This document shows positions 22,468 to 61,825 of a DNA stretch of 64,000 nucleotides, piece by piece. The notes under the pieces were generated by a model. The model saw nothing but the letters and a program-made list of their open reading frames with translations. It had not been told where the DNA came from and searched no databases. The translations under genes and the position numbers were made by a program. Source of the stretch: Escherichia phage vB_EcoM_FB; the sequence record MT682711.1. One strand, given 5' to 3'. The number at the start of each line of letters is the position of its first letter. Position 1 is the first letter of the stretch.

Positions 22468-22559
22468 ACAAAAGTCCTTTGTTGTTTTATACTATTTGCC
22501 TTTCGGCCTTAACCGATAGCGATTACCAAAAGCTAAAGCTCTACGGTTAGTATTATTAT

Positions 22560-22838
22560 TTATAGCTTTTTAAGCTTACGACAATAAGAATAGAACACGT
22601 CGTTAAAATTATATTCAACCCAATTCCTCTGTATAGGCGAGGTAATGGAAAGCATATAATGCGCTTTAATTAAATCCATCCCATTTTTATTAGGACATTC
22701 TTTATTATTAGCATTATACGTCGCTGCTACAACCTCTATCTCTCTTTTGTAAGCCACATCATCCATGATAGGCGAAAGAACAATATAAGAAATAGCCACA
22801 GCGAACGCTAGAATTAAAATCTTTGAATTTAGGTCCAT
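22560..22838 (-). CDS. membrane-anchored small protein
   Basis: N-terminal hydrophobic helix. Confidence 0.45.
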   Translation of the reverse strand: MDLNSKILILAFAVAISYIVLSPIMDDVAYKREIEVVAATYNANNKECPNKNGMDLIKAHYMLSITSPIQRNWVEYNFNDVFYSYCRKLKKL

Positions 22839-22845
22839 AATACCC

Positions 22846-23418
22846 TCAACTCGTTATTTCTATCCAGTGCTTCCTGCACAATGACACGTAAGAATCGTTG
22901 CCACCTATAGAAACTTGGTCACCGTCCTTAATTGCGATACCATTTTGGATACGAGCTGTCATAGTAGCCTTACGTCCACAATGGCACACACCTTTGTACT
23001 CAACGAGTTTATCTGCTGTAGCCAATAATTCAGCAGAGCCAGGAAACAGTTTACCCTGAAAATCAGTTCTTAGACCGTAACACATGACCGGTATATTATA
23101 ATTATCTACTATCTTTGCCAATTGTTTTATTTGCAAAGGTTCTAAGAACTGTGCTTCATCCACAAACACGCAGTGGATATCTTTTTGAGATTCAGCCCAA
23201 CGATAGAACTCGTATAGGTCCATATCCGGAGTCACTGCATTAGCCTCTTGACTAATCCCTATACGAGACGAAATGGTATGGCTTGATTCTCTATTGTCTA
23301 TCGCAGGCTTTAAAAGGAGTACGCTCATACCTCGTTCTTTGTAGTTATGAGCGGCCGTTAGCAATGAAGCAGTCTTCCCGGAATTCATTGCCGCATAGTG
23401 AAAATAAAGTTGAGCCAT
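22846..23418 (-). CDS. tk: thymidine kinase
   Basis: P-loop AMNSGKT, VDEAQF, C-terminal Cys cluster; T4 tk position. Confidence 0.85.
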   Translation of the reverse strand: MAQLYFHYAAMNSGKTASLLTAAHNYKERGMSVLLLKPAIDNRESSHTISSRIGISQEANAVTPDMDLYEFYRWAESQKDIHCVFVDEAQFLEPLQIKQLAKIVDNYNIPVMCYGLRTDFQGKLFPGSAELLATADKLVEYKGVCHCGRKATMTARIQNGIAIKDGDQVSIGGNDSYVSLCRKHWIEITS

Positions 23419-23427
23419 ATTACCTTC

Positions 23428-23613
23428 TTAAAGACTATTTACATAAGCAATTAATTCGTTTTCTTTCTCATCAAACCGACTGGCGAATTCTTCCTGGTGT
23501 TCGGCATCTATAGGGCCATATTCATCATAAAAAGAATTTGCTTCTGCATGCTCATCCAAAAGCTCATGGATAAGCTCAAATAATTTATCTTTCTGTTCTT
23601 TACTCAGACTCAT
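23428..23613 (-). CDS. hypothetical acidic protein
   Basis: Track start is TTG; ATG at 23613 gives ATGA overlap with upstream stop. Confidence 0.4.
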   Translation of the reverse strand: MSLSKEQKDKLFELIHELLDEHAEANSFYDEYGPIDAEHQEEFASRFDEKENELIAYVNSL

Positions 23614-23822
23614 AACCATTGCACCTTTAAGCAATATTCTTCTACATGCTGTTTACGTTTATTTTTATCTATAAAAGTATATTCAACATATTCGCCGATA
23701 TACCATTTATCGGTGTTGTGTTGACTTTTTATAGGGCATTTAGTTACTCGGGTTTCGGTCCAGCGTCGAATAATTTCCGCTTTGTTTTTAGGGTCAAACG
23801 GATGCGGGTAATGGGCTTTCAT
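23610..23822 (-). CDS. hypothetical protein
   Basis: 70-codon ATG ORF. Confidence 0.4.
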   Translation of the reverse strand: MKAHYPHPFDPKNKAEIIRRWTETRVTKCPIKSQHNTDKWYIGEYVEYTFIDKNKRKQHVEEYCLKVQWL

Positions 23823-24261
23823 AATCTACCACCACTAAATTAATATCAGGAGTAAACAAATTAATCAATTGATAAACCTTGTCCCAATCACCACCGGCAA
23901 TACCACAACCGATGCGAGGAATATAAATTCTGGGTTTAAACAAAAGACCCTTTGCGGTACGGTTTAATTCTATCATACAGTTTACTAAAGCACCATAATC
24001 AAGATTAGGGCCTGGTTCGTATTGGGTGTATAAATTATAGCAAATTTGGCCCTTATTACCTGTGGCTTGAGTAAACGTGCCAAGTTTTTCCAAATTGCCT
24101 AAATAAGTGGTTTTATCAATAGCAAGAATAGGTGGATATGCCTTAGCCAATTGACCTGCTACACCTGAACCCATAGTATGAAAACAGTTACACCCATGAG
24201 CAACGTTATTACCCTGAAGAAACAGGGCGACGATATCGCCCTTAATATAATCAATAATCAT
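23794..24261 (-). CDS. macro-domain (ADP-ribose binding/processing) protein
   Basis: GDIVALF..NNVAHGCNCFHTMGSGVAGQLAKA and IGCGIAGGDW resemble macro-domain motifs. Confidence 0.6.
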   Translation of the reverse strand: MIIDYIKGDIVALFLQGNNVAHGCNCFHTMGSGVAGQLAKAYPPILAIDKTTYLGNLEKLGTFTQATGNKGQICYNLYTQYEPGPNLDYGALVNCMIELNRTAKGLLFKPRIYIPRIGCGIAGGDWDKVYQLINLFTPDINLVVVDYESPLPASV

Positions 24262-24614
24262 TTAGAGTTTAGCCCTCGGTTGTAAGAGTCAACGAGTCTG
24301 TCTACCATAGACGCGCATATTTCTTTGTACTTTTTATCAGACGGAACACATTCAGTAACGTTTAGACGTTGCTCGTATCTTTTAGAAAGGGTTTTCTCTT
24401 TCATTCGACGATGCTCGACGTCATTCTGTCCATCTTTAAAAGCAGCCGTTATTTTTGAACTGAATTCAATAACACATTCAGTATTACTTGGATGACAATA
24501 ATCTTTTGCTGTACGGGTAGCATACTCGACAATTGAATTATTGGTATCATCAACCTGTGACGCTAATACTCCCGGAGCAATCAACATAAGCGCTATAGTC
24601 ATCTGTTTAATCAT
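24258..24614 (-). CDS. secreted/periplasmic protein
   Basis: N-terminal signal peptide; four Cys. Confidence 0.45.
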   Translation of the reverse strand: MIKQMTIALMLIAPGVLASQVDDTNNSIVEYATRTAKDYCHPSNTECVIEFSSKITAAFKDGQNDVEHRRMKEKTLSKRYEQRLNVTECVPSDKKYKEICASMVDRLVDSYNRGLNSK

Positions 24615-25172
24615 TTAATATACCGCCTCAAACATCTTTTTAGATTTTAGGTAATTGGCCTTTTCTAGAACTTCCGAAGCATATTTACTACCTGCTTTGA
24701 AATTCCAGCCCGCATTATAAGAAGCAATCGCTTTTCTCAGGTCACCTTTGTGAACATTAATCCAATAAGACAGCTCAATGTAGGCCCAAGAGGCACTGTA
24801 CTGTCGGTTTTGGACCATACGAATTATTTCTTTATCTGACATCTTCCAACCTACCTGTTTAACACGACTTCTTAACGTAGGCAAGTAATTTTGGAACATG
24901 CCATAAGCATGGTGCTTATCTTTATTTAAACCTTGATTAATCCCAGCAGATGATTCCTGCCATAATAATCCAGCCATTATATATCCTAATCCTTTTTGAT
25001 TAGGGGTTTCTTTGAACTTTCCCGACTTTTGGTATTGTTCACCGAAAGCATACGCATAATGTAAATTATCTAGCTGGGTTTCTGTAAATACGGGTTCTGC
25101 TGCACTTACAGAAAACGAACCGCACATAATAGCCGCTATTAAAGAATATTTAAGTTTTTTTAGAAAAATCAT
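24615..25172 (-). CDS. secreted lytic transglycosylase-like protein
   Basis: Signal peptide then LLWQESS..GMFQ..YNAG motifs; track start TTG, ATG at 25172. Confidence 0.55.
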   Translation of the reverse strand: MIFLKKLKYSLIAAIMCGSFSVSAAEPVFTETQLDNLHYAYAFGEQYQKSGKFKETPNQKGLGYIMAGLLWQESSAGINQGLNKDKHHAYGMFQNYLPTLRSRVKQVGWKMSDKEIIRMVQNRQYSASWAYIELSYWINVHKGDLRKAIASYNAGWNFKAGSKYASEVLEKANYLKSKKMFEAVY

Positions 25173-25884
25173 AATCAATAAGTCCTCGGTAATCTACATT
25201 AGGGAAGCCATTCTTAATTGCGATTTTACTAAATCTTCCACACTTTGGTTTATTATTATCTACCCATAATTTATATAATTGTGAATACATTGGTTCACGC
25301 CATATAGGAGCCTTTCGCAAAGAGGCCTTTTTCCTTTCTATAGTTTCCTTAGAATTTTGTATGGCTTTAAATTTTTGTCTATTTTCAGGATTTTCAAAAT
25401 ACTTAACCCGTTTTTCAGACATTTTAGCTTTTACTTTTGGCGAATTTAAAATTTCTTTGAGCCGTTCTTTAGAGCCTTCCTTTTCAAAATATTTTATTAA
25501 AGCCTTTGAATGGGCCGCCCTATTTTCATTTTTAGAGAAGAATAAAATTTTATTAATAGATTGCAGTTTTGAAAATGATTCTTTAGCCAACTTATAATTT
25601 TCAGCATCTACAAAATAAGACCTTTGCTTTGAATTTGAAGTAGAGCTCATATTTAGCCAAGCAAAATTCAACCCGTAGTGGTTTGGATTAGCTTTGGCTA
25701 AATACATATGGGCTAAATAGTGTTCGTCAGCATAAAGCTCGACTAAATTGTCTTGGGTGTCAGGACCACCAACACAACTCGGTATTATATGGTGCTTTTC
25801 TGTATAGGCATCATTAGGTGTATCCCTAGATAAGGCAGCATTTATTATTTTATAGTAGTCATATGGATATTTTATAGTTTCCAT
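25150..25884 (-). CDS. HNH homing endonuclease (Mob-like)
   Basis: EKHHIIPSCVGGPDTQDNLVELYADEHYLAH. Confidence 0.75.
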   Translation of the reverse strand: METIKYPYDYYKIINAALSRDTPNDAYTEKHHIIPSCVGGPDTQDNLVELYADEHYLAHMYLAKANPNHYGLNFAWLNMSSTSNSKQRSYFVDAENYKLAKESFSKLQSINKILFFSKNENRAAHSKALIKYFEKEGSKERLKEILNSPKVKAKMSEKRVKYFENPENRQKFKAIQNSKETIERKKASLRKAPIWREPMYSQLYKLWVDNNKPKCGRFSKIAIKNGFPNVDYRGLIDYDFSKKT

Positions 25885-25891
25885 ACTATCC

Positions 25892-26350
25892 TCACAAGTA
25901 AATAACTTTCGTGCTGGTTTTACCTTCTAAACGTTTAGAGTTAACAAATGCCATACGACATTTAAGGGAATATCCTTTATCAGGATGTTTACGGTCTACT
26001 GTCATACCTAGCCATAAGGTTTTATCGGTAATTTCGAGACGCAATGGACGATACACTTTACCAGGGACAATTTCGGATTCTACATCAGGTAGAGGTTCCT
26101 GGATTAAAAATTCATGAATTTCTTTAACATGGTTATGGAGTTGCTTGAATAAAGCAAAAACGTATTTTTCGTCGATTTCACGTTGGATAGCACGGTCCAA
26201 CAAGTGATTAGAGTACTTAATAAAGAAGGCTGGGACTCCGCTCTTGATGGCGGCTTTTTTGATGGACGTATTCAGTTCACGGAATTCGGTTTCGAACTGA
26301 CGACGTAATTTATTGCGGCGGATGAATACTTCTGAATTAATTTCTGACAT
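25892..26350 (-). CDS. regB: RegB-like endoribonuclease
   Basis: 152 aa; EVFIRRNKLRR..HLLDRAIQREIDE matches T4 RegB as recalled. Confidence 0.7.
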   Translation of the reverse strand: MSEINSEVFIRRNKLRRQFETEFRELNTSIKKAAIKSGVPAFFIKYSNHLLDRAIQREIDEKYVFALFKQLHNHVKEIHEFLIQEPLPDVESEIVPGKVYRPLRLEITDKTLWLGMTVDRKHPDKGYSLKCRMAFVNSKRLEGKTSTKVIYL

Positions 26351-26367
26351 TTTGTAATCTCCTGTAG

Positions 26368-26407
26368 TTGATAGGTCTATAGTACCACGTCTACAGGAGA
26401 TGTAAAC
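26368..26407 (-). promoter_or_regulatory. early promoter-hairpin cassette (PeSL-like)
   Basis: TTGATAGGTCTATAGTACCA..TGTAAAC; inverted repeat CTCCTGTAG/CTACAGGAG covers the SD. Confidence 0.5.
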
Positions 26408-26411
26408 TGCT

Positions 26412-26621
26412 TTATTCTTGGAATGGGGTAAGTTTTCCAGCAGCTGAACAAATTTCTACCAGTACAGGGTAAAACTCTTTCACTTGTTCAAGGCGTTGGG
26501 CTGCATACTGTACTTCACCTTCTTCGAGACAAGCCATTTGGTCGTCAAGCAAGTATTTGTGGTAGCCAGTACAGGCTTCACCGATAATACGCTGGAAATC
26601 TTGTAAACTTTCAATTTTCAT
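26412..26621 (-). CDS. hypothetical protein
   Basis: Start at ATG 26621 with GAGGAA upstream. Confidence 0.4.
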   Translation of the reverse strand: MKIESLQDFQRIIGEACTGYHKYLLDDQMACLEEGEVQYAAQRLEQVKEFYPVLVEICSAAGKLTPFQE

Positions 26622-26899
26622 CAGTATTTTTCCTCGGGTTGGAAAACGGAACGACACGCCCACATGCTTGCTTCTTTCAGACGGTCAATTGCATTACGAA
26701 TCTGGGTGATGCGTTCATGAGCCTGGTCTAGTTCTTGTTCATAAACCTCTTCGGTATCTAAGTTCATATAATGAGTAACATGTTCTTCTTCCAGAGCTTT
26801 AAACATTAACCCAAGACGAACTTCAGCATCTTTGATAGCTTTTACTTTACCGATTTTATCGTCGGTATGCGGCTTATAACCCTTGATATCTTCAATCAT
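26621..26899 (-). CDS. hypothetical protein
   Basis: 92-codon ATG ORF, ATGA coupling. Confidence 0.45.
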   Translation of the reverse strand: MIEDIKGYKPHTDDKIGKVKAIKDAEVRLGLMFKALEEEHVTHYMNLDTEEVYEQELDQAHERITQIRNAIDRLKEASMWACRSVFQPEEKY

Positions 26900-27114
26900 T
26901 TCACTTCCTCGCCAGTTGCGATATCATATTCTACCAAACGAAGGCCTTCAGTCCAACCTTGCACGGAGATATAGGTAGTCGGGTAAATCATTTCTTTACC
27001 ATTCCACCGACCGCCATCCCAGACTTCCAGAAAGTCTTGTTCACCTGGTCCATTAAGCCATTCAACAAATCTTTTCAGAGCTTCTTCAGAACCTTCAATT
27101 GTCAATTTAGACAT
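26896..27114 (-). CDS. hypothetical protein
   Basis: 72-codon ATG ORF. Confidence 0.4.
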   Translation of the reverse strand: MSKLTIEGSEEALKRFVEWLNGPGEQDFLEVWDGGRWNGKEMIYPTTYISVQGWTEGLRLVEYDIATGEEVK

Positions 27115-42815: not shown

Positions 42816-43643
42816 TTAAGAATTCTTCCATACTTTCTGAGCTGAGTAACGCTTACCTTTAGACATGAACTGTTGGAGAGGCATCATTACGACATTAGCC
42901 CAATCAGATGGTTTTATCTCTACTAAAGGTCCCTTAATATTTCCAGGGATATAAGCCTTAATCATCACGTCGGCGCCAGCGAATCCTTTTACCTTACTCC
43001 AATCGATTTTTAATTTAGTCGAGTTCGTAATGGTAGGCGTACTCGCGTATTGCTTCAGCAATTCTTCCAGAAATTGTTGTCGTGCTTTAGGTGGGATATA
43101 GTGTAAGTTCAGCCCGTACATTAAATTATGCTTACCTAGCCCAAGATAAATGATTAATGGATATTTGTCCCAGTACGGTAGGGTATCCTTATGTTTGGCA
43201 TCATAGATATACGCATAAAGCTTACCAGGAGATGGTTTAGATACCTGGTGCCCACGAATTCCTTTCTTTAATGTTTCTGTAAACCATTTAGCCGATTTAT
43301 TGTTTACAGCGGCGCCCTCGTTAGCAATCTTATCACGAATACTCTTTCTAAAACTATTCACCAAAATTAATTGACGTTCTGCTTTGGTTAATTTATTGCC
43401 AGGTTTCTTCTGAAGTTTTTCAACCTGTACAGCAGTTTTAATTCGACTCGAGTATCGAGACATCGCAGATGTAAAGCTAGAATACTTGATGCCTTTATCT
43501 TCAGCGAATTTCTTAGCCGAAACACCTTTAGCCTTAGCGTTGGCATATTCAACGCCTAAAGTTATCCATTGTTGTTCTGAACGAGTAGGCTTGGAACCTT
43601 TTGTAGTTTCAGTAGCCTCGTTGATGTAAGAAAATATACTCAT
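42816..43643 (-). CDS. 2: DNA end protector gp2 (by position and size)
   Basis: Start at ATG 43643 forming ATGA overlap with gene 4 stop. Confidence 0.6.
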
Positions 43644-44089
43644 CCTTTCCATCCTAATTTTTTCAGTGAGTTTTCGGTAATCAATCTGAAATTAATTCCC
43701 ATTTTATCTGCTGTAGCTTTAGCAGCTTTCCATTTATCTTTATTTACACTCCATGTATAATGTTCGTTGATATATCTCTTTTTAGCAGCTGTAGTCATTT
43801 TAGCAGGCGCCGCTGGAGGATGGGTCTCTTTAAAAGGTTTGACTTCGAAAAAGAATTGTTGACCATTGTCGAACTTCACCCAGAAGTCCATAAAATACCG
43901 ACGTTTCTTTCCATCAGCGTTACTAAAATATGGAATCACAACCTCTTCCGAGTTCCACTGGACGACATTAGGATGGTTGTCAAGCCAACGCATAAGCCAT
44001 GCTTCCCAAGAGGAACGATATTGGATTTTCTTCCAATCACCTTTATATTTTTGTAAGTTTGTAGGTTTAAATTTCCCTGAGTAGGCCAT
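43640..44089 (-). CDS. 4: head completion protein gp4
   Basis: MAYSGKF.. N-terminus and 149 aa as recalled for T4 gp4. Confidence 0.75.
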
Positions 44090-44099
44090 AGTGCCTCCT

Positions 44100-44107
44100 T
44101 ATAAATA
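44100..44107 (+). promoter_or_regulatory. late promoter TATAAATA for gene 53
   Basis: Exact TATAAATA 28 nt upstream of gene 53 ATG, GGAGG SD between. Confidence 0.65.
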
Positions 44108-44114
44108 TTAATAT

Positions 44115-44122
44115 TATTTATA
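44115..44122 (-). promoter_or_regulatory. late promoter TATAAATA for gene 4
   Basis: Exact TATAAATA on minus strand; the two boxes sit inside a 9-bp inverted repeat AGTGCCTCC/GGAGGCACT. Confidence 0.6.
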
Positions 44123-44134
44123 CTCGGAGGCACT

Positions 44135-44737
44135 ATGCTCTTCTCATTTTTCGATCCTATAAATTACGAATCAAAAACAGTCAAGCCAGATTCCGGCTCA
44201 TTAACTGATGCCGATGTACTGAGCGTACCGATGACTGATATATTTAGAAACTATAAAGAATATTTTGATAAAGTGGCTAAAAATTATACACTTAAAACAT
44301 ATTATATCAGTGGGGCCCCTCGTCCAGAAGAATTAGCCCATCAACTTTATGGTAACGTGCAATTATATTGGATCCTTTTAATGTGTAACAATATCTATGA
44401 CCCTTATTACGGCTGGATTACAGGCCAAGAATCTGCGTATCAAGCAGCTATTCAACGTTATGCTACTGCAGGCGGAAACCAAGTCCTTTATCATGTCAAT
44501 GAAAAGGGTGAGAAATTCTGGAATCTAGTAAATACTCCGGAAAATCCTTATACTTGGTACGATAAAGGTGATACAGAAAAACGTTATCCTCAATATGAAG
44601 GTCCTTTGGCTGCAGTAGATATTTACGAGGACGCCATTCGTAAAAATGAATATAAGCGCGAAATAAAGATTATAGACCCTAATGACATCGAGTCCTTTGT
44701 TTCCGCTTTAATTAGAGAAATGGAGAAGTCACTCTAA
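44135..44737 (+). CDS. 53: baseplate wedge protein gp53
   Basis: MLFSFFDPINYESKTV.. N-terminus and 200 aa as recalled for T4 gp53. Confidence 0.8.
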   Translation: MLFSFFDPINYESKTVKPDSGSLTDADVLSVPMTDIFRNYKEYFDKVAKNYTLKTYYISGAPRPEELAHQLYGNVQLYWILLMCNNIYDPYYGWITGQESAYQAAIQRYATAGGNQVLYHVNEKGEKFWNLVNTPENPYTWYDKGDTEKRYPQYEGPLAAVDIYEDAIRKNEYKREIKIIDPNDIESFVSALIREMEKSL

Positions 44738-45249
44738 TGTTTTATTACGTCTATAAAATAACCAATATAATTAATGGTAAATTTTATATCGGTGCTCATA
44801 GTACATCAAATATGGATGACGGTTATATGGGCTCAGGTAAATTAATTAAACGCGCTATACTAAAATACGGCATTGAAAATTTCAAAAAAGAAATATTAAA
44901 ATTTGTTGATTCTAAAAAAGAAATGTATGAACTCGAAAAAGAACTTGTTGTCCTTACTGAAAATTCATACAATTTAAAACCGGGCGGTTCCGGTGGGTTT
45001 TTAAAACATGATAACTTTAAAGGCAGGTCCCATAGTCAGAAAACCAAAGATATTATGAGCGCTAATAACTCAGGCAAAAACAATCCTATGTATGGTAGAA
45101 AACGAGACCAACACGGAGAAAAAGCACCTAATTATGGTAAAAAGTGCTCTGAGGCTAAAAGAAAATTACTTTCTGAAAAATCTAAATCCTATTTTGAAAA
45201 CCTTCAAACCATAACTAAAAAATCTCGGCTTTGGTCCTACATCGGTTGA
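44737..45249 (+). CDS. GIY-YIG homing endonuclease (Seg-like)
   Basis: FYYVYKITNIINGKFYIGAHS GIY-YIG motif, [14 protein letters not shown]-like Gly/Lys repeats. Confidence 0.8.
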   Translation: MFYYVYKITNIINGKFYIGAHSTSNMDDGYMGSGKLIKRAILKYGIENFKKEILKFVDSKKEMYELEKELVVLTENSYNLKPGGSGGFLKHDNFKGRSHSQKTKDIMSANNSGKNNPMYGRKRDQHGEKAPNYGKKCSEAKRKLLSEKSKSYFENLQTITKKSRLWSYIG

Positions 45250-45369
45250 AACTAGATATGTATCAAGACATATTAAAAAGCTAGGATTAGATTTTTATAA
45301 ATTTAATCGTGATATAACAGAAACTAATGTTTCCATAGTTAGAAATATTTTAGAACAAAGGAAAGCGCT

Positions 45370-47157
45370 ATGATTAACATGTCTGATAATGTAAGTTGGT
45401 TCGTCGGTGTAGTTGAAGACCGAATGGACCCGCTCCAACAAGGCCGAGTACGCGTGCGCGTATGGGGTATGCATCCTTACGAAAAGGTCCAAGGTCCTGT
45501 AAAAGGCCTTCGTACAGAGGATTTACCGTGGATGTCCGTATTAATGCCTACATCTTCTGCCTCTGTTTCTGGTATCCAAACCGCTATGACTGGTATGGTT
45601 CCAGGTACTCAGGTTTATGGGCACTTTCTTGATAAGTGGAAATTAAACGGGCTTGTCCTCGGTACATATGGTTCCGCTTCAAGACAAAAGGCTAATCCTA
45701 ATGAAGGTTTTAGTGACCCGACAGGTCAATACCCACTTTATTTGGGTAATGATGCTGCAGCACTAAACCGAGGTGGTGAAGTTGGATACGATGCCACTTC
45801 CAACGTAATACAAGATGCAAACACCGATGTAGGTATTAATCCTGATGGTTTAGATTTGAGCCAGGTTAAGCCTGATGATAATCCTAATTTCACAATAGAA
45901 AACATGCTTCACCGTGATGAAGGGCTTCGACTGAAGGTATATTGGGACACCGAAGGATACCCTACTATCGGTATAGGTCACCTTATTACACCACAACCTA
46001 TTAGAGATATGAATCAAATAAACAAAATATTATCTAATCAGGTAGGACGAGAAGTTAAAGGTAACCCTGGTGCAATATCAATGGACGAGGTTTCTAAATT
46101 ATTCCAAGACGACCTTAAAAAAGTCCAAAACGATATAGGCAGGCATAGTGTTGTAGGTCCTGTTTATAATAAAGAAAACCGTTCGAGACAAATGGCTCTT
46201 GAAAACATGGCTTTCCAAATGGGATTGGGCGGCTTGGCTAAATTCCGTGGAATGCTTAGTGCAATGCTAATAGGCGATTATAAAAAGGCATTTGAGGAAG
46301 CTCGTAATTCAGTATGGTTTAACCAAACTAAAGGCCGTGCATCAAGGGTGTCAATGATTATCCTCACAGGTAACATGGAATCATATGGTATTATGGCCCC
46401 TAAAGAAAGGTCATTTAATGGCCGTTCGTATAGAATGATTCAAACCTTTGTGGCCCCTACAAATTCAGACCCTGCCGACCCGTGGACTCCAGAAGACACA
46501 AGGATTCTTTTTAAAGAACCTGATTCTAGTTATAAAGGCGAATATCCATATGTCCAAACCATGCAAACTGAAGGCGGGCATATCCAAGAATTCGATAATA
46601 CTCCAGGGCAAGAACGATACCGTTTAATCCATCCTACCGGTAGTTATGAAGAAGTTGCTCCTGATGGACGTAAAACTTCTAAGACGGTAGCCGATGGTTA
46701 TTATATGACCCAAGGCGATTCAAATACTTATGTTGGTGGTAATAATAAAGTCAACGTTGGTGGCGATGAAACCTATTATAATATGGCAAACGTGCGCCGT
46801 CAAACTGATGGGTCTGAAAGCATTCATATTCGAGGGAATGAAACCAAAACTGTAGAAGGTAATGGAACTCTGCTTGTTAAAGGAAATGTTAAAATAGTTA
46901 TTATGGGTACTGCTGATATAACTGTTGAACAAGAAGCATATATTACGGTTGAAAAAGATACAACAGTTAATGTCAACCAGAATGCAGATATAAGCGTTAA
47001 ACAAAAGGCCACAATCAATGCTCAAAATATGGATGTAAATGTCGAACAAGATTTAAATTTTGCAGCGACGAACATTAATTTAAACGCATCAAATACTGTG
47101 CATATGGATGGCGGTTCATTAGCTAAAGTATCTGGTGGCAACGTACAGGTCGGTTAA
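45370..47157 (+). CDS. 5: baseplate central spike gp5 with lysozyme domain
   Basis: N-terminal OB-like region, internal lysozyme block (HRDEGLRLKVYWDTEGYPTIGIGHL), C-terminal V-N-V repeat beta-helix. Confidence 0.85.
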   Translation: MINMSDNVSWFVGVVEDRMDPLQQGRVRVRVWGMHPYEKVQGPVKGLRTEDLPWMSVLMPTSSASVSGIQTAMTGMVPGTQVYGHFLDKWKLNGLVLGTYGSASRQKANPNEGFSDPTGQYPLYLGNDAAALNRGGEVGYDATSNVIQDANTDVGINPDGLDLSQVKPDDNPNFTIENMLHRDEGLRLKVYWDTEGYPTIGIGHLITPQPIRDMNQINKILSNQVGREVKGNPGAISMDEVSKLFQDDLKKVQNDIGRHSVVGPVYNKENRSRQMALENMAFQMGLGGLAKFRGMLSAMLIGDYKKAFEEARNSVWFNQTKGRASRVSMIILTGNMESYGIMAPKERSFNGRSYRMIQTFVAPTNSDPADPWTPEDTRILFKEPDSSYKGEYPYVQTMQTEGGHIQEFDNTPGQERYRLIHPTGSYEEVAPDGRKTSKTVADGYYMTQGDSNTYVGGNNKVNVGGDETYYNMANVRRQTDGSESIHIRGNETKTVEGNGTLLVKGNVKIVIMGTADITVEQEAYITVEKDTTVNVNQNADISVKQKATINAQNMDVNVEQDLNFAATNINLNASNTVHMDGGSLAKVSGGNVQVG

Positions 47158-60235: not shown

Positions 60236-61825
60236 ATGATTAACAAATTGGAACTTAGTGAGTTACCATTTGTTGACGGCGTACCTGATGCTCCTCAAAA
60301 GCGTATCCAATGGATACGCGAGGGTGATTGTATGTCTGCAGCAAAAACAAAATACGGCAATGAAGGTAATTTGAACGCTGCTGCTTTAGGAGTTCAGAAA
60401 AACGTTGAAGCTCTTGATGCGAATGATTTGAAAACCGCAGATAAAGTTAACGAACTGGTAGAAAACGTTAATAATATCAATGATGCCTTAGAAATGGCTA
60501 CGGATATTTCCGTCATCCAACAAATTGAGAAAACCCGTGTTGATATCGTAGAGCTTAAGAGAGTAGAAGGCGAAACCACTACTGGGCTAAACAATTTAAC
60601 CATAAATTTAGACCACCTAAAAGAAGACGTTGGTTACCATGACCCTTTACAAGATGGCCCATATTTAACTGTACGTGAAAATATTGTTCTTCTTAAAACC
60701 GAAATAGGTCATTATGAAAACCAGGATATAAATGGTAATCCGTTGCCTCCTGGTGAAACCAGCGAAGCCACCGGTATGAAACGTCGCATCATTGATAATA
60801 CCACTCAATTGGTCGACCATCGTCTTCGCATTGATACCCTTGAAAGGAATTATGAAGATTCTGACGTCGGGCAACTAGGTATTAAATTAAATGAAATTCG
60901 TGCTGAACTTGGGCCCCATTCCGATACGGTAGGTAAACAACAGGCTTATACCCGAATTTCTGTATTAGAAACGGCTGCAATTAATTTCAATACATCTATC
61001 GACGAAATTAAGACTAATATTGATTTCTCCGGTATGCCTATAAAGGACCGAGTAACTACTTTAGAAAGCAAAACTCTTACCCTAGAAAATTCAGTCAACG
61101 TTGATTTAAAACCTCGTGTAACATCAATTGAAACCCAAATAGGTTCTGAATCAACTCCTACTTCTATTAATGGACGTTTAAGCGGTCTTCGTACTGATGT
61201 AAATGACCTTAAAACCATAGTGGGTGTTAGTTCAAGTGATGGCTTACGTTTCCAAGTTACTGATATCAACCGCCGTTTAGGTAGTGAAGTATCTCCGGCA
61301 GCTGGGACCATTAATAAGCGTTTAAATGACGTTATTATCCAAGCAAACCAATCTACTTCATCTATCCAGGATATTCAAGTAGAAATTGGAAATAACCAAT
61401 CCGGTATTAAGGGTACTTTACTTAAACTCACCAATAAGGTTGACGGGACAAACCCTAACGGTACTACTGTAGAAGAACGTGGTCTTATTAACGCGGTTAC
61501 TTCTTTAGAAACCCAGATGTTAGGTAAGTTGAATGATGCCCCTTCCGATGGTAAGCTTTATGCTCGTCGTAATGCTACGTGGACCGAAGTTCCTAACGTT
61601 TCTACTGAAATAGGGACCGTTAAAGCTGATTTAGTTGTTACCGATGGTAATGTGGCAGCTTTAACTTCTAGAGTTACTACAGCAGAAGATAAAATCACTG
61701 CATTAGAAACTGAACTTGCTAAACGTCCACCAGTGGCTCCAGTTGCTGATGGACTTCCATATGTTCTTGTTGATAATGCGTGGGTGCTATTGTCAGATTT
61801 TGTGACTTTAAACCCAGCACCATAA
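60236..61825 (+). CDS. wac: fibritin (whisker antigen control) with foldon-like C-terminus
   Basis: N-terminus ..LPFVDGVPDAP..; long coiled-coil; C-terminal ..DGLPYVLVDNAWVLLSDF foldon-like. Confidence 0.8.
   Translation: MINKLELSELPFVDGVPDAPQKRIQWIREGDCMSAAKTKYGNEGNLNAAALGVQKNVEALDANDLKTADKVNELVENVNNINDALEMATDISVIQQIEKTRVDIVELKRVEGETTTGLNNLTINLDHLKEDVGYHDPLQDGPYLTVRENIVLLKTEIGHYENQDINGNPLPPGETSEATGMKRRIIDNTTQLVDHRLRIDTLERNYEDSDVGQLGIKLNEIRAELGPHSDTVGKQQAYTRISVLETAAINFNTSIDEIKTNIDFSGMPIKDRVTTLESKTLTLENSVNVDLKPRVTSIETQIGSESTPTSINGRLSGLRTDVNDLKTIVGVSSSDGLRFQVTDINRRLGSEVSPAAGTINKRLNDVIIQANQSTSSIQDIQVEIGNNQSGIKGTLLKLTNKVDGTNPNGTTVEERGLINAVTSLETQMLGKLNDAPSDGKLYARRNATWTEVPNVSTEIGTVKADLVVTDGNVAALTSRVTTAEDKITALETELAKRPPVAPVADGLPYVLVDNAWVLLSDFVTLNPAP

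Follow-up and report, generated by a model that had tools for sequence, protein, structure and literature searches.

Which ADP-ribose-linked substrate is the likely target of a small macrodomain protein encoded among the accessory genes of a T4 relative, and what would the phage gain from it? The question is raised by an ATG-start open reading frame (ORF) of 155 codons on the minus strand (23794..24261) of a 64,000-nt stretch of Escherichia phage vB_EcoM_FB (MT682711.1), the whole of which is called the window below. The preliminary description of this DNA presented the product as a macro-domain protein next to thymidine kinase, able either to reverse host ADP-ribosylation of the DarT type or to process products of the phage's own ADP-ribosyltransferases. 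From the ORF and its translation, the gene is a tk.4/adfM-like CDS (23794..24261, minus strand) encoding a stand-alone macrodomain protein of 155 aa.

Gene and local gene block

The tk.4 gene is part of a block whose order, regB, vs.1 (SLT-like), vs, tk.4, tk.3, a small ORF and tk, is common to the window, T4, RB32 and Bp7. Its upstream neighbour is vs, the valyl-tRNA synthetase modifier gene (24258..24614, minus strand; PHROG 1256, E 5.9e-34), in the same order as in T4, RB32 and Bp7. According to the sequence and the ORF coordinates, vs terminates and tk.4 starts within one ATGA (24258..24261, minus strand), and T4 has the identical 4-nt overlap (vs 61386..61733, tk.4 60922..61389). This arrangement is consistent with translational coupling of vs and tk.4 within the minus-strand gene block. 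Downstream, tk.3 (23610..23822, minus strand), which matches Pfam DUF7202 over positions 1-70 of 70 (E 2.5e-37), overlaps the 3' end of tk.4 by 29 nt. This overlap (23794..23822) has the same length in Bp7 but measures 4 nt in T4.

Between tk.3 and tk, a profile match identifies a DUF7438 ORF (23428..23634), and the thymidine kinase gene itself lies at 22846..23418 (minus strand; Pfam TK, E 1.9e-57). The proximity of tk.4 to thymidine kinase in the preliminary description is therefore approximate: both genes belong to the same block, but tk.3 and the DUF7438 ORF intervene. A functional link between tk.4 and tk was considered and rejected because evidence for it is lacking; the two intervening small genes are unrelated, and the block strings together accessory genes of various kinds.

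The regB gene was recognised in the window by its match to PF10715 (E 6e-69). The window block contains one additional gene, an HNH homing-endonuclease ORF of 244 aa between vs.1 and regB (25150..25884, minus strand; PHROG 655, E 2.9e-36). In T4, RB32 and Bp7 this ORF is absent and vs.1 and regB directly adjoin. This difference suggests a lineage-specific mobile insertion, and the ORF overlaps the start of the annotated vs.1 ORF. A scan of the region 22500..27000 returned 20 promoter-like sites, where 14.0 +/- 4.2 were expected, and 6 terminator-like sites, where 2.8 +/- 2.2 were expected; it was uninformative as to a dedicated tk.4 promoter.

Macro fold and class

The two macro-domain-like motifs on which the preliminary description was based, NNVAHGCNCFHTMGSGVAGQLAKA at residues 18-41 and IGCGIAGGDW at residues 117-126, are both present in the translation of the 155-aa product. 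Comparison with macro-domain family profiles, which that description had put forward as a check, agrees with them: the Pfam Macro profile PF01661 matches the window protein above its gathering threshold (32.1 bits against 22; E 1.2e-7) over profile positions 2-117 of 118, and the predicted structure and the fold search concur. The protein also matches PHROG 335, labelled 'phosphatase', with an E value of 6.8e-67. When a profile built from 47 homologues was compared with the PDB, matches were obtained to BT1257 (2e-20), TARG1 (4e-18), SCO6735 (8e-18), Poa1p (7e-15) and DarG (3e-11 and 7e-10). The AlphaFold2 model computed with the 47-homologue alignment (pLDDT 94.6, pTM 0.89) has the three-layer alpha/beta/alpha arrangement of the macro fold. 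Low confidence is confined to the C-terminal few residues, whose codons lie in the tk.3 overlap (pLDDT about 49). Because these overlap-encoded residues alone have low pLDDT, the C-terminus is predicted to be a disordered tail. Profile, structure prediction and fold search together confirm that the window protein is a macrodomain.

[quoted passage not shown] The conservation of Asn25 and the presence of Gly-rich loops predict binding of ADP-ribose. Identity to human TARG1 and yeast Poa1p is 21-23%. The window protein is distinct from DarG proper: it scores 20.1 bits on the DarG equivalog model NF048014, which has a cutoff of 250 bits, and 23.8 bits on the PADLOC DarG model, over positions 3-142 of 329. 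Moreover, DarG carries a C-terminal DarT-binding domain and is encoded beside darT, whereas the window protein has neither and its gene is flanked by vs and tk.3.

Active site

The first ADP-ribose-binding loop, delimited by conservation and alignment, comprises residues 21-36 (AHGCNCFHTMGSGVAG; 24154..24201, minus strand) and includes His22 (24196..24198, minus strand) and Asn25 (24187..24189, minus strand), aligned with His24 and Asn27 of SCO6735, respectively. In the Thr79-Gln80 pair (24022..24027, minus strand), Gln80 occupies the column of DarG Lys80, TARG1 Lys84 and SCO6735 Gln85. The phosphate-binding loop, residues 115-126 (PRIGCGIAGGDW; 23884..23919, minus strand), contains Gly120, equivalent to SCO6735 Gly128, and Ala122, at the position of TARG1 Asp125. 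The key residues are invariant in the family: among database homologues Gln80 is found in 120/120, His22 in 119/119, Asn25 in 119/119 and Gly120 in 117/117 non-gap sequences, and Pro115, Gly118, Gly120 and Trp126 of the phosphate loop are invariant. Lysine at position 80 occurs in 0/120 homologues.

In SCO6735, where the importance of His24 and Asn27 was established by mutagenesis, Gln85 is essential (the Q85A mutant is inactive) and is locked by Asn27, and Gly128 also matters; the enzyme removes dT-ADPr made by DarT from DNA faster than DarG or TARG1 (PMC9411070). By alignment, the active site of the window protein is of the SCO6735 Gln type and not of the DarG/TARG1 Lys type. Such a site is fully compatible with a role against DarT2, since SCO6735 removes DarT-generated dT-ADPr. 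The nearest characterised members of this type, SCO6735 of Streptomyces coelicolor and BT1257, are thymidine-ADPr DNA hydrolases of the ALC1-like class with about 27% identity to the window protein, which shares their defining features (H22, N25, Q80, G120 and A122, with no Lys/Asp dyad). They differ in a 5-6-residue 'mobile loop' insertion missing from the window protein, in which the loop following the glutamine is of 8 residues compared with 13-14 in SCO6735 and BT1257. They also differ in context, their genes being bacterial and either housekeeping or DNA-damage-regulated, not phage genes. In human TARG1, the Lys84/Asp125 dyad stands in place of Gln80/Ala122, and in the DarG proteins of T. 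aquaticus and M. tuberculosis, as in gp104 of phage PhiKZ, a catalytic lysine within an FPTK motif replaces the glutamine.

Orthology to T4 Tk.4 and probable activity against DarTG2

The window protein aligns with T4 Tk.4 (NP_049723) end to end, over 155/155 aa, with 53% identity (E 4e-62). In a neighbour-joining (NJ) tree of 122 sequences both fall into a common subclade of 47 sequences. T4 Tk.4 is also of 155 aa, occupies the same slot between vs and tk.3 with the same ATGA coupling, and has H22, N25, Q80 and G120 as well as the short loop after Gln80. Sequence and synteny thus identify the window ORF as the Dhakavirus orthologue of T4 tk.4/adfM, the Dhakavirus taxonomy being taken from the Bp7 record. 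The two proteins nevertheless differ at 47% of their residues, for example in the phosphate loop (GAGIGKGNW in T4, GCGIAGGDW in the window), and T4 is a Tequatrovirus, to whose protein the anti-DarTG2 phenotype belongs.

That phenotype was described in a November 2025 preprint (bioRxiv 10.1101/2025.11.20.689424). In HIDEN-SEQ, in which a saturated T4 transposon library was grown on a DarTG2 host, tk.4 was the sole significant hit, and a clean T4 tk.4 knockout was sensitised to DarTG2. The gene was renamed adfM, for anti-DarT factor Macrodomain, and a structural likeness of its product to the M. tuberculosis DarG macrodomain was noted. The evidence is genetic, and removal of ADP-ribose from DNA by AdfM is said by the authors to be what 'seems likely' (bioRxiv 10.1101/2025.11.20.689424). 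The reversal of DarT-type ADP-ribosylation that had been suggested for the window protein thus gains support from the genetics of the T4 orthologue on a DarTG2 host, with hydrolase activity presumed.

On this basis the main role of the window protein is probably the removal of DarT2-made ADP-ribose from DNA, by a Gln80-based mechanism resembling that of SCO6735. The tk.4 product would be expressed from the compact regB-vs-tk block on the minus strand and would bind the ADP-ribose that host DarT2 puts on the N3 of thymidine at TNTC motifs in single-stranded phage DNA. Hydrolysis of the bond at C1'' of the distal ribose would yield free ADP-ribose and replicable DNA, allowing the phage to escape the abortive DarTG2 defence. 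By the SCO6735 scheme, Gln80, held by Asn25, would position the ribose and a water molecule together with His22 and the Gly118/Gly120 loop; the Lys-based catalysis of DarG and TARG1 would not apply. Beside what is directly established (the ORF, the macro fold and its class, the invariant residues, the orthology with its synteny and the T4 genetics), we infer which substrate is used, how the reaction proceeds and that the T4 phenotype carries over to the 53%-identical window protein. At this level of identity, specificity could have drifted from that of T4 Tk.4.

The name AdfM has also been given independently to PhiKZ gp104, in a 2026 Cell Reports article (PMC13309987). In vitro this protein removes ADP-ribose from DarT2-modified DNA, and the N23A substitution reduces the activity (PMC13309987). 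It is related to the window protein at 21% identity (E 0.002), but resembles M. tuberculosis DarG (E 9e-25), keeps the FPTK lysine and reaches 132.9 bits with the PADLOC DarG model. The conserved asparagine (N23 in gp104, N25 here) is all that the two active sites have in common. Since gp104 is a true DarG-type protein and only 21% identical, its biochemistry is not simply transferable to Tk.4-type proteins. The one name therefore covers two subclasses, the Gln-type, TARG1/SCO6735-like Tk.4 of T4 and the Lys-type, DarG-like gp104 of PhiKZ, and transfer of annotation by name would mislead, the two proteins being about 21% identical.

A phosphatase relative in Vibrio phages

An activity of another kind is known within the family. 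RES-domain defences (aRES) convert NAD+ into nicotinamide and ADPR-1''-phosphate, which is unusable by the phage NARP1 pathway of NAD+ reconstitution (Adps and Namat), and Adpp of Vibrio phage Gary (KNV71_gp137) has been demonstrated, with purified protein and mutants, to be an ADPR-1''-phosphate phosphatase (10.64898/2026.01.28.702374, January 2026 preprint). In phage Gary, KNV71_gp137 was confirmed here to be flanked by Adps and Namat. It is 98.7% identical to gp179 of the T5-like Vibrio phage ABurr, a Tk.4 homologue encoded between PRPP-synthetase-like and nicotinate/nicotinamide phosphoribosyltransferase-like genes. Adpp and the window protein are 39% identical (E 9e-29) and have identical H/N/Q/G residues. 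Both belong to one NJ clade of 116/122 sequences, which leaves out SCO6735, BT1257, TARG1, DarG and PhiKZ gp104.

Because a 39%-identical relative is a proven ADPR-1''-phosphate phosphatase, the activity of the window protein cannot be read from its sequence alone. Neither of two similarity measures served to discriminate between the functions. On the DarG HMM, Adpp (44.6 bits) scored above T4 AdfM (36 bits) and the window protein (23.8 bits), and DarG similarity is therefore not predictive of substrate. In single-sequence searches, the window protein matched Poa1p at 1.4e-6 and Gary Adpp gave no match at E<0.01.

A serious, though much less likely, alternative is that the main role of the window protein is that of an Adpp/Poa1p-like phosphatase, turning aRES-made ADPR-1''-phosphate into ADPR, alone or beside DNA de-ADP-ribosylation. 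The RefSeq name 'phosphatase' implies such an activity, and Gary Adpp, with the same four residues, is a demonstrated enzyme. However, Adpp works within an Adps-macro-Namat operon, whereas the neighbours of the window gene are vs and tk.3, and tblastn with Vibrio phage queries found no Adps-like or Namat-like gene in the 64-kb window. In a phage lacking NARP1, NAD+ is not restored by the freed ADPR. The window protein moreover groups with T4 Tk.4 and not with Adpp, which falls outside the 47-sequence subclade and carries a 7-residue loop insertion that the window protein lacks, and the known phenotype of the T4 orthologue is directed against DarTG2.

Both reactions would strip the C1'' substituent of the distal ribose, be it the N3 of thymine or a phosphate, and a single site for the two is plausible. 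Tk.4-type proteins might accordingly be broad C1'' erasers, in which one site acts on thymidine-ADP-ribose and ADPR-1''-phosphate, and perhaps on U-ADPr RNA; we regard this generalisation as speculative and on balance doubtful. If it were true, a single 155-aa protein would blunt at least two mechanistically unrelated ADP-ribose- or NAD-based defences, and the family would represent a third catalytic ALC1-like variant, apart from the Lys type and the long-loop Gln type. The two preprints of 2025-2026 assign two activities, anti-DarT2 and phosphatase, to one family with identical catalytic residues, and the substrates were never cross-tested. At stake are how far anti-defence function transfers by homology in this family and the correctness of the 'phosphatase' annotation.

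Vibrio phages of the T5-like Thalassavirus group carry their Tk.4 homologue inside an Adps-macro-Namat operon (NARP1-AP). A close homologue, mostly adjoining a 'ribose-phosphate pyrophosphokinase' gene, is present in at least 60 records of Vibrio phages.

Possible inhibition by binding and other possible substrates

DarT2 might also be blocked chiefly by binding of the toxin rather than by catalysis. Indeed, catalytically dead SCO6735 Q85A, DarG K80A and TARG1 K84A inhibit DarT in vitro, SCO6735 most strongly (PMC9411070), and the T4 evidence, being genetic only, accommodates such a mechanism. Nevertheless, the active-site residues are invariant in about 120 homologues, the most distant of them about 38% identical, which argues for catalysis. 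The window protein also lacks the DarT-binding C-terminal domain of DarG, the DarG model being matched over positions 3-142 of 329 only. Toxin binding as the chief mode of action thus appears very unlikely beside enzymatic removal of ADP-ribose from DNA.

Even less probable is a role in erasing or trimming the marks that the phage's own Alt, ModA and ModB leave on host proteins or RNA. Enzymes of the SCO6735/TARG1 class do remove some protein-linked ADP-ribose (PMC9411070), and Bp7, the nearest annotated relative, carries modA and modB. The second function put forward in the preliminary description, processing of such products, is nonetheless left without support, as tblastn with T4 ModA, ModB, Alt, 30.3/AdfN and 61.2/AdfA found none of them in the 64-kb window, and the phenotype in the T4 screen was DarTG2-specific. 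Alt, ModA and ModB are Arg-specific ADP-ribosyltransferases, and macrodomains of the ALC1/TARG1-like class are not known to cleave the Arg-ADP-ribose linkage.

RNA carrying ADP-ribose on N3 of uridine, or some other derivative of ADPR, for instance an immune signal, is highly improbable as the relevant substrate. Activity on such RNA is possible, given that TARG1, DarG and SCO6735 strip uracil in ssRNA of ADP-ribose (PMC13036486), but in the literature covered no bacterial defence making U-ADPr on RNA was identified.

Distribution of the family

Over 2.4 kb around tk.4 the window is 94-96% identical to the Dhakavirus-type T4 relatives Bp7, JS10, IME08 and WG01, in whose records the gene is annotated tk.4, described in RefSeq as 'phosphatase' and otherwise as 'similar to T4 Tk.4'. 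A 99%-identical protein of Escherichia phage EcWhh-1 (P0001) is already present at NCBI. By tblastn, homologues of tk.4 occur in 2733/50,697 phage records, about 5%, including Straboviridae, Ackermannviridae, Felix-O1-like phages and phages of Pseudomonas, Vibrio and Campylobacter. Within the Tk.4/AdfM family the window gene is ordinary; it has been catalogued before and is not new. Little is gained by it as a discovery, for dozens of deposited genomes carry the annotation tk.4 or 'phosphatase' and the T4 orthologue already has a name (adfM) and a phenotype.

Some relatives have additional domains. In a metagenomic protein of 247 aa (P0117), a Tk.4-family macrodomain that shares 39% identity with the window protein is followed at the C-terminus by a NUDIX domain (PF00293, E 3.8e-13), a fusion which suggests that release of ADP-ribose may be coupled to its further breakdown. 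Two other proteins (P0092 and P0095) possess N-terminal extensions of ~100 aa with no Pfam match.

Additional observations

A GC-rich hairpin, AAGGGCGATATCGTCGCCCT (24224..24244, minus strand), flagged as terminator-like, lies within codons 7-13 of tk.4. It has the form AAGGGCGATAT(C/T)GTCGCCCT, with an 8-bp stem and a 3-nt loop. Its nucleotides are identical in the window, Bp7, T4 and RB32, every synonymous site included, whereas the codons on either side differ and protein identity is only 53%. Compared with shuffled sequence, its folding is not significantly better (z -1.41). The hairpin may represent a conserved element of RNA or DNA, or may owe its conservation to chance and possibly be non-functional.

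In the Bp7 genome, inspected from 6.4 to 66 kb, a cluster annotated as phosphoheptose isomerase, thymidylate kinase and thymidylate synthase is found downstream of imm and gene 43 (42896..45388 of the Bp7 record). This cluster may represent a different DNA base-modification pathway, and such a modification could affect how DarT2 sees its TNTC sites.
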